Below are positions 5,138-47,042 of a stretch of 49,351 bases of DNA, piece by piece. The stretch lies in assembly GCA_038078755.1 (NCBI GenBank), contig JBBTSQ010000025.1, positions 7,099 to 56,449 of the forward strand. Reading direction: 5' to 3'. The notes below the pieces were generated by a model that did not search any database, was not told the DNA's origin, and was given only the letters and a program-made list of their open reading frames with translations. This DNA comes from Patescibacteria group bacterium. Its GTDB lineage: Bacteria > Patescibacteriota > Minisyncoccia > Phycocordibacterales > JBAYGS01. A program made the position numbers and the translations under genes. Positions within the stretch are counted from its first letter, which is position 1. Every line of letters starts with the position of its first letter.

Positions 5138-5755
5138 CTACAACCCATTAAACTCACTCATTGCTTTGTCGCGACCGTGCTCGACGAGGACAGAGAGGCC
5201 TTCAGCAACTTTCTTTGCAGACTTTTTAATCAGTTCTAATTCGGCTTTTTTGAATGGGTCGACAATAAAATCACCGATCAATTTTTCTCCGGACGGTTTT
5301 TTTAATTTGCCCGATGCAGTTGAAGGCGAAATCCCCATTCGTACCCGCACAAACGCTTCCGTGCCGATCGCTTTAATAATCGACTCGACGCCCTTGTGTC
5401 CACCAGAACTTTTATTAAAAGAAATTTTAAACTTACCAATTGGAATATCGAGGTCATCGTGAATCACCACCAGATTTTCTGCCACACCCCCTTTGAAAAC
5501 TTTAGACTTCGCCACTTTGACCAGAGACTTCACCGAAAGCCCCGACTTATTCATAAAAGTCTCGGGTTCAACAAGTGTTACTTTGTTTTTTGCCACACCC
5601 CCTTTCGAGACCGACGCATTTATTTTTTTATCCAACACAAAGTCATCTGCTGAAATAGATTTGGCAAATACACCCAGCACAATCCTGCCCGCGTTATGAC
5701 GAGTGAGCGCGTATTCCTCTCCGGGATTTCCGAGACCAACGATGATGTAGTGCAT
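5138..5755 (-). CDS. pth: peptidyl-tRNA hydrolase
   Basis: MHYIIVGLGNPGEEYALTRHNAG N-terminal signature. ORF-track residues 1-32 (5756-5851) are read-through of a stop-free word tract. Confidence 0.9.
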   Translation of the reverse strand: MHYIIVGLGNPGEEYALTRHNAGRIVLGVFAKSISADDFVLDKKINASVSKGGVAKNKVTLVEPETFMNKSGLSVKSLVKVAKSKVFKGGVAENLVVIHDDLDIPIGKFKISFNKSSGGHKGVESIIKAIGTEAFVRVRMGISPSTASGKLKKPSGEKLIGDFIVDPFKKAELELIKKSAKKVAEGLSVLVEHGRDKAMSEFNGL

Positions 5756-5760
5756 AGGGG

Positions 5761-5858
5761 GAGTATATAACAAACAACTAACAACACACAACAGACCAGA
5801 AACCGACAACCCACAACAAATAACTGACAACTCACAACATACAACAAACAATCAGAAG
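5761..5858. repeat. long A/C-only word tract
   Basis: CAAACAACTAACAACACACAACAGACCAGAAACCGACAACCCACAACAAATAACTGACAACTCACAACATACAACAAACAATCAGAAG. Confidence 0.85.
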
Positions 5859-5871
5859 AGAAAATTCCCCG

Positions 5872-6195
5872 AAATTAGGTTAAAGGCTCAACCCTGAATA
5901 GCCTGTCGGGTTGAGCCTTTAACCTAATTTTAACTAAAAACCACTAAAAATACTGCATCAAAAATCGTGTGATAATTCTCTAAACGGCCTTGCAGTAGAG
6001 CCATGAAATGCTCGAACGGCTCACCGAAGCACCATATGTATCGAACGTATGGGTAAAGAGTAATAGGGTGTTACTGGTTCTTTTATGTAGTATGCTTGTA
6101 AGTAATAAGCATGGTGCTCGGTGAGCCGTTTAGCACTTCTACGTTCCAGTTGAGCCGTTTTTTGGCGAAAAAGCCAAAAAACGGCTCAACCGAGC
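5872..6195. repeat. GAGCC/GGCTC modular hairpin repeat, copy A
   Basis: 23-bp perfect stem AAATTAGGTTAAAGGCTCAACCC/GGGTTGAGCCTTTAACCTAATTT (5872-5930), then a body shared with copies B and C (TAGAGCCATGAAATGC..GAACGGCTCAC). It ends in an 18-bp stem GTTGAGCCGTTTTTTGGC/GCCAAAAAACGGCTCAAC. Confidence 0.8.
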
Positions 6196-24403: not shown

Positions 24404-24569
24404 GTGCTGGGACCCAGGTGGCCGAAGACGGCCGGATCGGTCACGACTCTTGCCTCGTCGTCACTCGGCAAGGTCTCGACCCCAGCTCGCGGTTTCGCTT
24501 ACTAGCGAAACATCGCTCCGCTTTTCGAACCTGGGTCGCGAGCAAAGTAGTTTGCTCGCTTCCCAGCAC
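24404..24569 (+). other. tRNA-Phe-derived mirror element (tRNA-like multi-helix segment)
   Basis: The left end is an exact 16-nt copy of the tRNA-Phe 3' end. The right end is the inverted T-loop/acceptor part, interrupted by hairpin GCGAGCAAAGTAGTTTGCTCGC and preceded by hairpin GTTTCGCT..AGCGAAAC. Confidence 0.6.
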
Positions 24570-24608
24570 AAAATACAAAATCCGCCGATAAGGCGGATTT
24601 TGTATTTT
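24570..24608. terminator. perfect 17-bp bidirectional hairpin abutting the tRNA-Phe 3' end
   Basis: AAAATACAAAATCCGCC-gataa-GGCGGATTTTGTATTTT. Confidence 0.75.
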
Positions 24609-26162: not shown

Positions 26163-26285
26163 CTGTGCGGGTACCGGGAATCGACTATTACATAGTCAGG
26201 TGCTTTTCTCGTTTCGCAGACGAAACATAGAAAAGCCTTCCGATTCCCGCCGGAAGCAAAGCAGTTTGCTTCCTCACTCACACAG
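26163..26285 (+). other. tRNA-Gly-derived mirror element, homologous in design to 24404-24569
   Basis: Left arm CTGTGCGGGTACCGGGAATCG resembles the reverse complement of the tRNA-Gly 3' end. Right arm is TCCGATTCCCGCC + hairpin GGAAGCAAAGCAGTTTGCTTCC + TCACTCACACAG. Internal hairpin GTTTCG-caga-CGAAAC. Confidence 0.6.
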
Positions 26286-26308
26286 TCATTCGCTTCGCTC
26301 ATTACCTG

Positions 26309-45049: not shown

Positions 45050-45946
45050 CTAAGACAAATTTTTTTCGGCCGAGATAAACAGTTCGATGTCCCCTTCGAG
45101 CACCTTGTCTACTTGAGAGGTCTCGACGTCCGTGCGATGGTCTTTGACCATTTTGTATGGATGCGTGACGTACGAGCGGATTTGGTTACCCCACTCAATT
45201 GCAGTGGTTTTGCTAATATACATTCCCTTCTCACGGGCGATACGTTCTTCTTCGCGGAGTTTGTAGAGCTTGGCTTTCAAGATTTGTAATCCTTTTTCTT
45301 TGTTCTGCCCCTGACTGCGTTCGGAAGTGACATGTACAGAAAGTTTGGTTGGCAGATGCACAATGCGTACAGCCGTCTCACGCTTGTTTACATTTTGTCC
45401 GCCAGGACCGCCGGCACGAGCGGTAGTCACCTCCAGCTCATCTTCAGGAATATCCATTTCATTTGTCTTTTCAAATTTTGGAATCACCTCCACCATCGAA
45501 AATGATGTGTGGCGGAGCTGTTTGGCATTAAACGGCGAAATACGCACGAGACGATGGACACCGGATTCGTGTTTGAGCGTGCCGTAGATACCTGCCCGAC
45601 TACGTTCAGGCGGGTTTTTCCCTGAAATTTCAATCGTCACATTTCGGTAGCCTCCGTGATCGTTGGTATTTTCATGAATAGTGCTATAGCCCCAGCCTTT
45701 TTGGGCGATATATTTCTGATACATATGGAGAAGCATCCCCGAAAAATCTTCAGCGTCATCCCCGCCCGCTCCGGAGAAAATAGTCATAATAGCGTCACCT
45801 TTGTCATATTTTCCGCCACCTTCGATTTCTGATTTAAGGTCACTGATAGCCTTGAGAGTGGCTTGTGCCCGATTTTTGTCGGCCCAAAAATCGGGCGCAG
45901 AAAGCGTCGCTTCGAGATCTGCTAATTGTTTCTTTTTGTCATCCAT
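45050..45946 (-). CDS. prfB: peptide chain release factor 2 (short, no programmed frameshift)
   Basis: SPF tripeptide (RISPFNAK) and GGQ ([10 protein letters not shown]). A single uninterrupted ORF starting [12 protein letters not shown]. Confidence 0.9.
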
Positions 45947-46066
45947 TACAAACAACACTATACCAAAGATTGATTAAAAAGGTAGGTTTGCCCAGCACCT
46001 GTAGCCCAAAGGTGCTGGGTCCTCAATTTTACAACCACAGCATCGGAATGCGTGTGGGTAAAATTG

Positions 46067-46106
46067 GGAAAAGAAAACCGCCTAGCACCGTTATGGTGCT
46101 AGGCGG
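46067..46106 (-). terminator. rho-independent terminator on the minus strand
   Basis: The minus strand reads CCGCCTAGCACC-ataa-GGTGCTAGGCGG followed by TTTTCTTTTCC. Confidence 0.7.
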
Positions 46107-46461
46107 AAAAGCCTGCCGAGGCGAGTGTTAATGCAGTGACTGATGGTTGTGGGAGAGACAACCAGGGGGAGCGTATCCGGCAGAAGGCTCAGTCGGGATG
46201 CACTCAAGATGGACGTGTCGATTTTACACACCACCAAGGATCAACCGAGAACAGACATGCAAGACATCTTTTCTCTTTACCGGGAGAATACACTCCCGAG
46301 GTTATTCAACGACCCGCCTCGACAGAAAAATTCAAAACAAAGAACAGGCTACGGAGACTAGCTTGATGTAGCCTGATTAGGAAACACCGGCTTTACCCGA
46401 TTATCCCTCAAGTCTCCGTAGCAAAATTAGTATACGATATCTGCAAAAAGATGCAACTGAC
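46107..46461 (-). ncRNA. unassigned candidate non-coding RNA region downstream of the tRNA-Thr pair
   Basis: No credible ORF on the minus strand, while all three plus-strand frames are stop-free for about 215 nt. 11-bp stem CTACGGAGACT/AGTCTCCGTAG. Bounded by tRNA-Thr and a terminator. Confidence 0.35.
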
Positions 46462-46537: not shown

Positions 46538-46568
46538 GTACACATATATTACTACACTTAAAATTTTG

Positions 46569-46641
46569 AGCCGTTGAGCAGGATTGAACTGCTGACCTCG
46601 TCATTACCAATGACGTGCTCTACCAACTGAGCTACAACGGC
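46569..46641 (-). tRNA. tRNA-Thr (anticodon GGU)
   Basis: GCCGTTGTAGCTCAGTTGGTAGAGCACGTCATTGGTAATGACGAGGTCAGCAGTTCAATCCTGCTCAACGGCT. Confidence 0.9.
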
Positions 46642-46877
46642 AATAATTTTGATTTCAAAAACTTTCTACCCGCGGCTGATTTTAAATACAATTCATGTTT
46701 CCGAGCTTCTACAGAAGTATCATACTCTTTTGTATAAACAACTACCAGATTCTTCATTGCACTCGTAGTCCGAGTGTGTCCACCCCTATGTTCCCCTAGA
46801 CGACGAGAAAGATTGGTTGTCATACCCTTATACAACAAACCCCTCTCATCTTCCAAAACATAGACTGTATATCTCAT
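46632..46877 (-). CDS. stand-alone GIY-YIG nuclease family protein (81 aa)
   Basis: MRYTVYVLEDERGLLYKGMTTNLSRRLGEH...ARKHELYLK. The stop codon lies inside the first 10 nt of tRNA-Thr(GGU). Confidence 0.8.
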   Translation of the reverse strand: MRYTVYVLEDERGLLYKGMTTNLSRRLGEHRGGHTRTTSAMKNLVVVYTKEYDTSVEARKHELYLKSAAGRKFLKSKLLPL

Positions 46878-46890
46878 TAACTTAATGTAT

Positions 46891-46950
46891 CAACTGAGCC
46901 CCGCCCGTACCGGACTACCGTCTTCGGTACGTTCGGGCGGGTACAACGGC
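46891..46950 (-). pseudogene. duplicated 5' end of tRNA-Thr(GGU) split by a 42-nt GC hairpin
   Basis: CAACTGAGC + CCCGCCCGTACCGGACTACCGTCTTCGGTACGTTCGGGCGGG + TACAACGGC, versus the contiguous CAACTGAGCTACAACGGC at 46624-46641. Confidence 0.7.
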
Positions 46951-47042
46951 TTTATTTTGCGAACTTCGTAAGAGTACTACAATCACTCAATATTTTCAAT
47001 CAAAAGAAAAACCGCGTCGCTTTGCAACACGGTTTTGAAAAA

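Follow-up and report, generated by a model that had tools for sequence, protein, structure and literature searches.

The closest described counterpart of the locus reported here is SegB of phage T4, a GIY-YIG gene located in a tRNA cluster that promotes the inheritance of itself and of flanking tRNA sequence by cleaving recipient DNA (PMC2330249). Our locus lies in a 49,351-nt stretch of DNA from a Patescibacteria group bacterium (GCA_038078755.1, contig JBBTSQ010000025.1, positions 7,099 to 56,449 of the forward strand; the whole stretch is referred to as the window) and consists of a small GIY-YIG open reading frame (ORF) whose end overlaps an intact tRNA-Thr(GGU) gene and whose start is preceded by a partial, palindrome-interrupted copy of the same tRNA. 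The two have in common a GIY-YIG gene among tRNA genes, and the co-conversion logic of SegB matches those relatives of our locus in which a foreign intact tRNA stands beside a displaced relic. SegB, about 220 aa long and with a DNA-binding domain, nevertheless contrasts with a protein of 81 aa that is a catalytic core alone. It is also phage-borne and is not known to have a partial tRNA duplication, ORF/tRNA overlap or palindromes, whereas the present elements are chromosomal in Patescibacteria. A full-text literature search found no published description of an ORF-in-tRNA layout with palindromes, SegB being the nearest case (PMC2330249).

In size and in the shared motifs Y..Y.G, R..EH and E, the protein resembles UPF0213 proteins (YhbQ/YazA; structures 1zg2 and 1ywl) and the Slx1 domain (6seh). 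Slx1 cuts branched DNA in a structure-specific manner, in keeping with the helix-boundary sites described below and with palindromes able to extrude cruciforms; the resemblance suggests a possible substrate, not orthology with the role of these proteins, and we know of no tRNA docking, duplication or mobility described for them. Integrative elements that target tRNA genes, such as phages and integrative and conjugative elements with their attachment (att) sites, likewise carry a copy of the displaced tRNA segment; the tRNA gene remains whole, with a direct repeat flanking the inserted DNA. However, they use tyrosine or serine integrases, span kilobases and usually restore the tRNA 3' end, whereas here it is the 5' part, in about 0.3 kb and with a nuclease alone. 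In Allomyces mitochondria a mobile GIY-YIG ORF is reportedly inserted at atp6 with a foreign replacement of the gene terminus, the resident part being left as a relic, and it is said to co-occur with small mobile GC-rich hairpins (GC clusters or double-hairpin elements), the link between ORF and hairpins being unproven; that case differs in being mitochondrial, in affecting the 3' end of a protein-coding gene and in having no tRNA cloverleaf positions. Repetitive extragenic palindromic (REP) sequences with their associated tyrosine transposases (RAYT), miniature inverted-repeat transposable elements (MITEs) and Rickettsia palindromic elements are also short GC-rich palindromes that occur in both orientations and nested, and a single enzyme gene may mobilise them in trans. 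The palindromes at our loci differ from these in lacking target-site duplications, in sitting at tRNA-derived helix boundaries, in occurring once in a 49-kb window, and in being accompanied by a GIY-YIG protein rather than an HUH or DDE transposase.

We hold with moderate confidence that positions 46568–47002 of the window are one copy of a homing-like GIY-YIG element that nests in tRNA genes and is widespread in Patescibacteria. It is apparently an undescribed tRNA-targeting selfish element, of the free-standing, nuclease-driven kind that is already known, and a distinct class is possible if its targeting is guided by DNA structure. If this reading is true, a compact (~0.3 kb) and very widespread selfish element joins the short list from Patescibacteria, and the long-unassigned stand-alone UPF0213/Slx1-like GIY-YIG proteins acquire a function and a substrate.

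A GIY-YIG gene nested in tRNA-Thr(GGU)

The 5' part of the tRNA, from nt 1 to about nt 40, is present twice, the upstream copy lying behind a conserved promoter-like block and being interrupted by a palindrome (Table 1; handles beginning with L denote related loci and assemblies, described below). Nucleotides 8–10 of the intact tRNA (U8-A9-G10) form the TAG stop codon of the ORF, and both halves of the relic keep the orientation and order of the tRNA. A preliminary description of the sequence had already placed the ORF end within the first 10 nt of the tRNA and noted that tRNA nt 1–18 recur in two pieces split by a 42-nt hairpin. All of these coordinates are confirmed, and no split exact copy of nt 1–18 arose in 200,000 shuffles of the 400 nt upstream. 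That description took the repeat for an 18-nt target-like duplication of the tRNA 5' end. The direct repeat stands, but it is longer: past nt 18 a weaker tRNA likeness continues, with CATTAAGTTAATGA resembling tRNA nt 31–44, so that the relic amounts to a decayed copy of about tRNA nt 1–44, in which the ATG of the ORF lies. The stretch of relic at 46878–46899 serves as the 5' untranslated region of the ORF.

Table 1. Positions of the element and adjoining features within the window
Feature	Position	Strand	Evidence or remark
Intrinsic terminator of the upstream histidine-phosphatase gene	47008..47036	-	13-bp stem then T-run; conserved in L130 and L028
Promoter-like block: TTGAAA (46993-46998), 17-nt spacer, TACTCT (46970-46975)	46963..47002	-	Conservation across relatives
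Relic copy of tRNA-Thr(GGU) nt 1-9, GCCGTTGTA (5' strand of acceptor, plus U8 and A9)	46942..46950	-	Identical to nt 1-9 of the intact tRNA
42-nt GC palindrome between relic nt 9 and 10 (linker/D-stem boundary)	46900..46941	.	Member of the hairpin family of docked loci
Relic of tRNA nt 10-18, GCTCAGTTG (46891-46899), then decayed remainder ATACATTAAGTTA	46878..46899	-	16 of 22 positions match the tRNA, gap-free
81-aa stand-alone GIY-YIG ORF, Slx1/UPF0213 branch	46632..46877	-	Final codons and TAG stop are tRNA nt 1-10
Intact tRNA-Thr(GGU), the docked tRNA	46568..46641	-	ARAGORN and Rfam (69.8 bits), lower boundary at 46568/9; overlaps the ORF by 10 nt

Read in the sense of the ORF, the palindrome is CCCGCCCG-AAC-GTACCG-loop-CGGTAC-GGGCGGG. 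An AAC bulge separates the outer stem of 8 bp (CCCGCCCG/CGGGCGGG) from the inner stem of 6 bp (GTACCG/CGGTAC). The centroid fold has an energy of -26.9 kcal/mol; the fold z-score of the 86-nt segment is only -1.65 because the segment is GC-rich. No second hairpin of the CCCGCCCG type occurs in the window. The element region is identical across 10 independently assembled contigs from Hainich groundwater metagenomes, and it is therefore not an assembly artefact.

Since the terminator ends the upstream gene, the relic, the ORF and the tRNAs begin a new transcription unit. The hexamers and spacing of the promoter-like block recur upstream of the relic in L130, L028 and L135, and we infer that this block is the original promoter of tRNA-Thr, which would now drive relic, ORF and tRNA; a consensus promoter scan did not flag it, so its function is argued from conservation alone. 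An essential gene would in this way have been entered without being killed, its 5' part being duplicated and its promoter and stop codon borrowed.

The protein matches the Pfam GIY-YIG family PF01541 (E=5e-10 and 40 bits, above the curated cutoff of 22.6), and the catalytic and metal-binding residues Y6, Y16, G18, R26, H30 and E62 are invariant in 60 homologues. An AlphaFold2 model (predicted local distance difference test score 93) has the alpha/beta GIY-YIG fold, its elements in the order beta-beta-alpha-beta-alpha-alpha. Foldseek matched it best to the UPF0213 structures 1zg2 and 1ywl and then to Slx1 (6seh), and a profile search against the PDB returned 1ywl (3.6e-9) and 1zg2 (1.6e-8) ahead of Slx1; among solved structures, BH0048 and EF2693, both UPF0213 proteins, stand closest in sequence and in fold, and the nuclease domain of Slx1 comes next. 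Pfam finds the catalytic domain alone in the 81 residues, and the absence of a DNA-binding extension speaks against a homing endonuclease of the classical, sequence-specific type. The putative activity is structure-specific cleavage of branched or cruciform DNA, with indirect support from the helix-boundary sites of the palindromes. Ratios of nonsynonymous to synonymous substitution (dN/dS) of 0.05–0.21 between pairs of homologues indicate that a working protein is maintained. The wider family, clustered at 50% identity, comprises 17,798 clusters at E<=1e-3 and 2,782 at E<=1e-10. Viral contigs in IMG/VR hold no relatives of the ORF, for which reason a phage origin was rejected, and searches against PHROGs, PADLOC and NCBIfam gave no match.

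Docking at tRNA genes and the palindrome family

Scanning one genome per species across 185,579 species yielded 415 confirmed stretches with relatives of the ORF, and counts given for the family refer to the best 80 of these 415 loci. Homologues occur by the dozen at 50–75% identity, nearly all of them in Patescibacteria. An ORF was scored as docked when a tRNA on the same strand starts between -45 and +130 nt of its stop codon, as is the case at 76 of the 80 loci, where about 2 are expected from the tRNA density of those loci. The stop codon coincides exactly with tRNA nt 8–10 in 48 of the 80; two further loci are off by one nucleotide in the tRNA start called by ARAGORN, and in others the stop lies deeper in the tRNA (nt 13–15, nt 21–23 or the anticodon loop) or a few nucleotides upstream. 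The partner tRNAs belong to at least 8 amino-acid types, among them Ala, Thr, Phe, Asp, Ile, Val, Arg and Lys, and alignment of the upstream regions to the tRNA reveals at most loci a partial 5' copy ahead of the ORF, interrupted by one to three GC palindromes. More distant GIY-YIG subfamilies (36–43% identity) follow this layout at tRNA-fMet, their palindrome being the minimal CCCGCCCGGGCGGG. There is in addition a mirror arrangement in which an intact tRNA-Met is followed by the ORF and a hairpin-split 3' relic, sometimes in tandem (L074, L082, L089).

Hairpins of the CCCGCCCG...CGGGCGGG type are found within 160 nt upstream of the ORF at 64 of 76 docked tRNAs, compared with 2 of the 37 other tRNAs of the same loci; 138 kb of unrelated Patescibacteria loci contain no such hairpin. 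A stricter, sequence-free criterion, a perfect 7-bp GC stem, selects 60 of 80 upstream regions and 4.4% of 1,905 background windows. Fifty-five of the 57 well-aligned hairpins sit at helix boundaries of the D arm, after tRNA nt 9 (n=12), nt 12–14 (n=9) or nt 20–23 (n=34), and others occupy positions in the anticodon and T arms. The placement of our hairpin at a helix junction, as first proposed, thus extends to the family; its treatment as an incidental interruption does not hold, as it belongs to a conserved set of palindromes. These occur in both orientations, with the asymmetric AAC(G) bulge on either side, and are nested in L044, L055 and L077; the two orientations and the nesting argue for insertion at the DNA level. 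Orientation and site appear to be linked (9F/1R at nt 9, 2F/6R at nt 13 and 24F/8R at nt 21, F and R being the two orientations; Fisher p = 0.006), although this is merely a hint, as the test ignores shared ancestry.

The distance from hairpin to ATG varies with the site, with medians of 25, 28 and 16 nt for the nt 9, 13 and 21 classes, whereas the junction of relic and ORF falls at about tRNA nt 34–44 in every class. What has been duplicated is therefore the 5' part of the tRNA up to and including the anticodon arm, with the hairpin as a distinct feature within it. Terminal inverted repeats, both orientations and nested insertions give the palindromes a MITE- or REP-like character; no target-site duplication flanks them, and there is no genome-wide dispersal (one per 49 kb; none in 138 kb of other loci). 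One 36-nt member of the family lies in apparently non-tRNA sequence (L053, 2069–2104), where it may be inside a coding region, 36 nt corresponding to 12 codons. In L073 (5600–5950), an intact tRNA-Thr(CGU) upstream of prfB directly follows a relic of nt 1–21 with a nested double palindrome, and there is no ORF; this arrangement looks like an ORF-less derivative of the GIY-YIG/tRNA element.

Relatives of the source locus were found by searching with the release factor 2 (RF2) protein of the window (45053–45946), to which the RF2 identities below refer. L130 (RF2 91% identical in amino acids) is about 98% identical in nucleotides across the region (24 mismatches in 1,120), its gene order is unchanged, and the three differences in the ORF are all synonymous. 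In structure it departs from the window in one respect, 85 additional nt that lie between ORF and intact tRNA. They are made up of GCCGTTGTA, a different palindrome, GCTCAGTTGGT and some 35 nt of tRNA-like sequence that has decayed, and they represent a further hairpin-split relic, likewise at the 9|10 site; a direct repeat of 10 nt flanks it. L028, a metagenome-assembled genome (MAG) of Taylorbacteria (RF2 ~69%, tblastx), is syntenic and has an intact ORF at 63% amino-acid identity. Its relic, GTCGTTGTAGCT, is closer to the acceptor of the window tRNA than to that of its own intact tRNA (GCCAAGA), and its hairpin is degenerate and differently positioned from that of the window. L135 (RF2 78%) keeps the promoter block (TTGAAA, 17 nt, TAYTCT) and has no ORF; a relic of nt 1–15, two other GC hairpins and about 37 nt lead to its intact tRNA-Thr(GGU). 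Remnants of the ORF are not significant in L135, the similarity to its start and end being reached by 15/500 and 98/500 shuffles respectively. In the more distant RF2 relatives L134 and L136–L140 the tRNA-Thr(GGU) locus is not adjacent, and the contig of L132 starts inside the tRNA, so that presence of the ORF is not assessable there.

In the comparison of orthologous tRNA-Thr loci, which the preliminary description had recommended, the ORF is kept in L130 and L028, and absent from L135 together with a retained relic, hairpins and tRNA. An ORF-less relative with a split duplicate had been named there as evidence against insertion, and formally L135 is such a relative; it reads better, if not provably, as an ORF-deleted derivative. 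The proposal that a cassette reached the tRNA 5' end by insertion or by recombination gains support from recurrent docking, but not as a recent event. To judge from these sequences, the element at the source locus is ancient, fixed and vertically inherited under purifying selection; it has been maintained in some lineages, probably lost in one, and is still being remodelled.

Across the family, the nearest relative of an ORF is docked at the same type of tRNA in 41 of 81 cases, against an expected 18%; ORF lineages tend to keep to one tRNA type, yet they have changed it repeatedly. ORFs 81% identical in nucleotides stand at tRNA-Phe in L022 and at tRNA-Thr in L044, with unrelated flanks. The core of ORF and tRNA is more similar than the flanks in several pairs (for example L047/L055, 90% versus 70% or no match), and some genomes have multiple copies at different tRNAs (L038/L073, L031/L076, L074, L082). 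Related ORFs at different tRNA types with unrelated flanks support the mobile, tRNA-targeted lifestyle initially suggested. In L044, L058 and L076 a second relic lies downstream of the intact tRNA, and its 3' acceptor strand pairs with the 5' acceptor strand of the upstream relic; neither strand agrees with the intact tRNA that the two relics enclose. An 'ORF + tRNA' cassette thus lies within an older resident tRNA that had the same anticodon and has been split. Comparison of the relic acceptor strand with the intact tRNA at 62 loci found the two identical in 40 and clearly different in about 12–15, the segment before the hairpin being usually perfect and that after it decayed. This asymmetry fits a homing-like process in which the recipient would supply the pre-hairpin part afresh at each event. 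A target-site duplication by staggered cut (nt 1..h) was rejected, as it explains the identical pre-hairpin segments but not the loci with an intact tRNA foreign to the relics.

Several smaller observations concern the family. At L082 (745–1660 and 1682–2400) and L074 (1640–2160), other GIY-YIG subfamilies are docked at initiator-type and elongator tRNA-Met, among them tandem duplicated units of an ORF and a hairpin-split 3' relic, with a minimal palindrome of 14–16 nt (CCCGCCCGGGCGGG or TCCCGCCTGGGCGGGA). Many family representatives are 100–125 aa long with the domain starting at residue 20–40, which would fit ORFs called upstream through relic and palindrome. ARAGORN reports a 'tRNA-Stop' with anticodon TTA in L071 (3227–3304), starting one nucleotide early, which may be a mis-registered call or a suppressor-like tRNA. 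Assemblies L004, L005, L006 and L009 end, and L131 and L132 begin, exactly in the tRNA D arm, 18 nt past the end of the ORF. The 19–20-nt string TGCTCTACCAACTGAGCTA, common to four tRNA genes of the window (Thr, Thr, Phe and Val), probably causes these breaks in short-read assemblies, and such breaks may hide elements in fragmented MAGs. Elements of this kind would break assemblies at tRNA D arms, inflate ORF calls and create tRNA pseudogenes open to misreading by annotators.

Proposed movement and competing explanations

In the process we envisage, the nuclease would start an insertion into a tRNA gene and recombination with the donor copy would complete it, co-converting adjacent tRNA sequence. 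The element would bring a replacement for the tRNA 5' part or a whole tRNA, the host would keep a working tRNA, and the displaced fragment of the resident tRNA would stay as the relic, with palindromes as short companion elements at the cloverleaf helix boundaries of the redundant copy. ORF and tRNA would be co-transcribed from the tRNA promoter, and RNase P, by cutting at tRNA nt 1, would remove the stop codon of the ORF and so limit expression of the nuclease. In view of the Slx1-like fold and the helix-boundary sites, cleavage may be guided by DNA structure. That palindromes lie at helix boundaries suggests that the nuclease reads such structure, which bears on why tRNA genes are hot spots for mobile DNA. 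A more far-reaching version, which we regard as possible but doubtful, is an undescribed structure-guided element in which an Slx1-like nuclease would read the cloverleaf or cruciform of the tRNA gene instead of a long sequence and cut at helix boundaries (9|10, 13|14, 21|22 and ~43|44), where the ORF cassette, with a replacement for the tRNA 5' part or for the whole tRNA, would be pasted in, as would palindromes as non-autonomous riders; disabling of the resident tRNA would then make the host dependent on the element (replacement/addiction). If so, one small enzyme could colonise many tRNA species.

A number of points weigh against a homing-like element. A GIY-YIG core of 81 aa that lacks a DNA-binding domain does not resemble the homing endonucleases described so far, such as I-TevI and the Seg proteins, in which an extended DNA-binding module gives a long recognition site. 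Next to the ORF, the intact tRNA keeps its whole D-arm and anticodon-arm sequence, only the relic copy being disrupted; because the presumed cleavage sites are thus retained, a simple homing model leaves donor immunity unexplained. The loci are not phylogenetically independent, and the counts therefore exaggerate how many events took place. We found no clean empty site, that is, an intact tRNA-Thr(GGU) behind the promoter block with no relic, and no recent transposition of the ORF was seen, the 16 contigs with homologue P0018 sharing one context. Nor were empty and occupied alleles seen among 13 contigs with an identical histidine phosphatase and 14 with an identical ORF, all of one structure. 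The 85-nt difference between L130 and the window may be a gain in the former or a loss in the latter. An 'anti-excision lock' was considered as a role for the palindrome, and is inconsistent with the 3'-side arrangement at tRNA-Met in L082. Long vertical retention under strong purifying selection is also what a host-beneficial gene is expected to show. Apart from these points, histidine-phosphatase relatives in metagenome contigs comprised 39 loci, none of them syntenic and none with a downstream tRNA or GIY-YIG gene.

Such retention, expected of a host-beneficial gene, leads to an explanation that we think unlikely, in which the ORF is a domesticated, host-beneficial repair nuclease of the Slx1/UPF0213 type, co-transcribed with tRNAs, the tRNA copy and hairpin act in cis as an RNA leader that stabilises the mRNA or adjusts its processing and expression, and the duplications arose by slippage. 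Retention of the ORF in syntenic relatives whose RF2 is 69–91% identical, with dN/dS of 0.05–0.2, would be well accounted for, as would the conserved promoter upstream of the relic, the fairly constant 10–30 nt from hairpin to ATG and the absence of the family from viral contigs. A resident repair gene should not, however, change its partner tRNA among close ORFs with unrelated flanks, be present in multiple and tandem copies in some genomes, be lost in L135, or form so patchy a subfamily (415 stretches in the one-genome scan of 185,579 species), and an RNA leader is difficult to reconcile with hairpins that vary in orientation, number from one to three, are sometimes nested, or are found past the tRNA or, in the 3'-side arrangement, past the ORF. 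The palindromes themselves could instead be the primary mobile agents, MITE-like, inserting at helix boundaries of tRNA genes and surviving only in redundant copies, with the GIY-YIG protein as a trans-acting nuclease or as an independent occupant that creates dead tRNA copies. Both orientations and occasional nesting are in keeping with this, and the same hairpin subtype is found at different tRNA positions in related ORFs, the segment between hairpin and ATG being specific to the local tRNA (L022 versus L044). Hairpin-bearing relics also exist without an ORF (L073 at 5600–5950, L072, L135 and the second relic of L130), and hairpins are also present in relics downstream of intact tRNAs, in T and anticodon arms and, in L053, in apparently non-tRNA sequence. 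We nevertheless judge this account improbable: the hairpins are nearly confined to GIY-YIG loci, with none in the 138 kb of other DNA and one in the window; in L033 a relic still identical to the intact tRNA carries a hairpin, which is hard to obtain by slow independent colonisation; and neither a target-site duplication nor another candidate enzyme was seen.

Direct repeats of a tRNA segment around foreign DNA are an established hallmark of tRNA-targeting integrative elements, and the repeats could in principle be attL and attR remnants of a decayed integrase-driven element with a passenger GIY-YIG gene. We give this very little credence, since the repeat covers the 5' rather than the 3' end of the tRNA, the ~310 nt between the repeats hold the 81-aa ORF and no integrase, independent decay to the same minimal layout in more than 60 genomes is implausible, and viral contigs hold no relatives. 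An intact integrative element with a tyrosine or serine recombinase between the tRNA repeats was rejected because the 81-aa ORF alone lies there. An intron in the tRNA, whether group I or bulge-helix-bulge, was likewise rejected, as the tRNA after the ORF is complete and there is no 3' half in the interrupted copy; with Rfam the element region gave only tRNAs at the gathering threshold and no intron or other credible match at E<=1.

Other structures beside tRNA genes

The window also contains non-coding 'mirror' elements downstream of tRNA-Phe (24404–24608) and of tRNA-Gly (~26170–26307), for which no credible match to an Rfam family was obtained. In these, a terminator-like hairpin follows the tRNA, and next comes the tRNA 3' end as an inverted copy; hairpin-rich sequence of about 100 nt then leads to a direct copy of that end. 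In the Phe element the copy is split at the boundary of acceptor stem and T stem, in the order GTGCTGGGA, hairpin and GACCCAGGTTCGAA. A mirror-like element about 160–250 nt long comes after tRNA-Thr(GGU) in L132 (55–320) and L135 (916–1078), and is not present at the corresponding place in the window or in L130. These sequences thus show a presence/absence polymorphism of a second tRNA-associated class that duplicates the tRNA 3' end.

Between tRNA-Thr(CGU) and prfB, the window has about 500 nt of non-coding sequence (45960–46460) that has no Rfam match at E<=1; L130 conserves it, and L132 does so in part. Within it, a perfect inverted repeat of 12 nt (46348–46359 and 46411–46422) appears to have undergone compensatory changes in L132.

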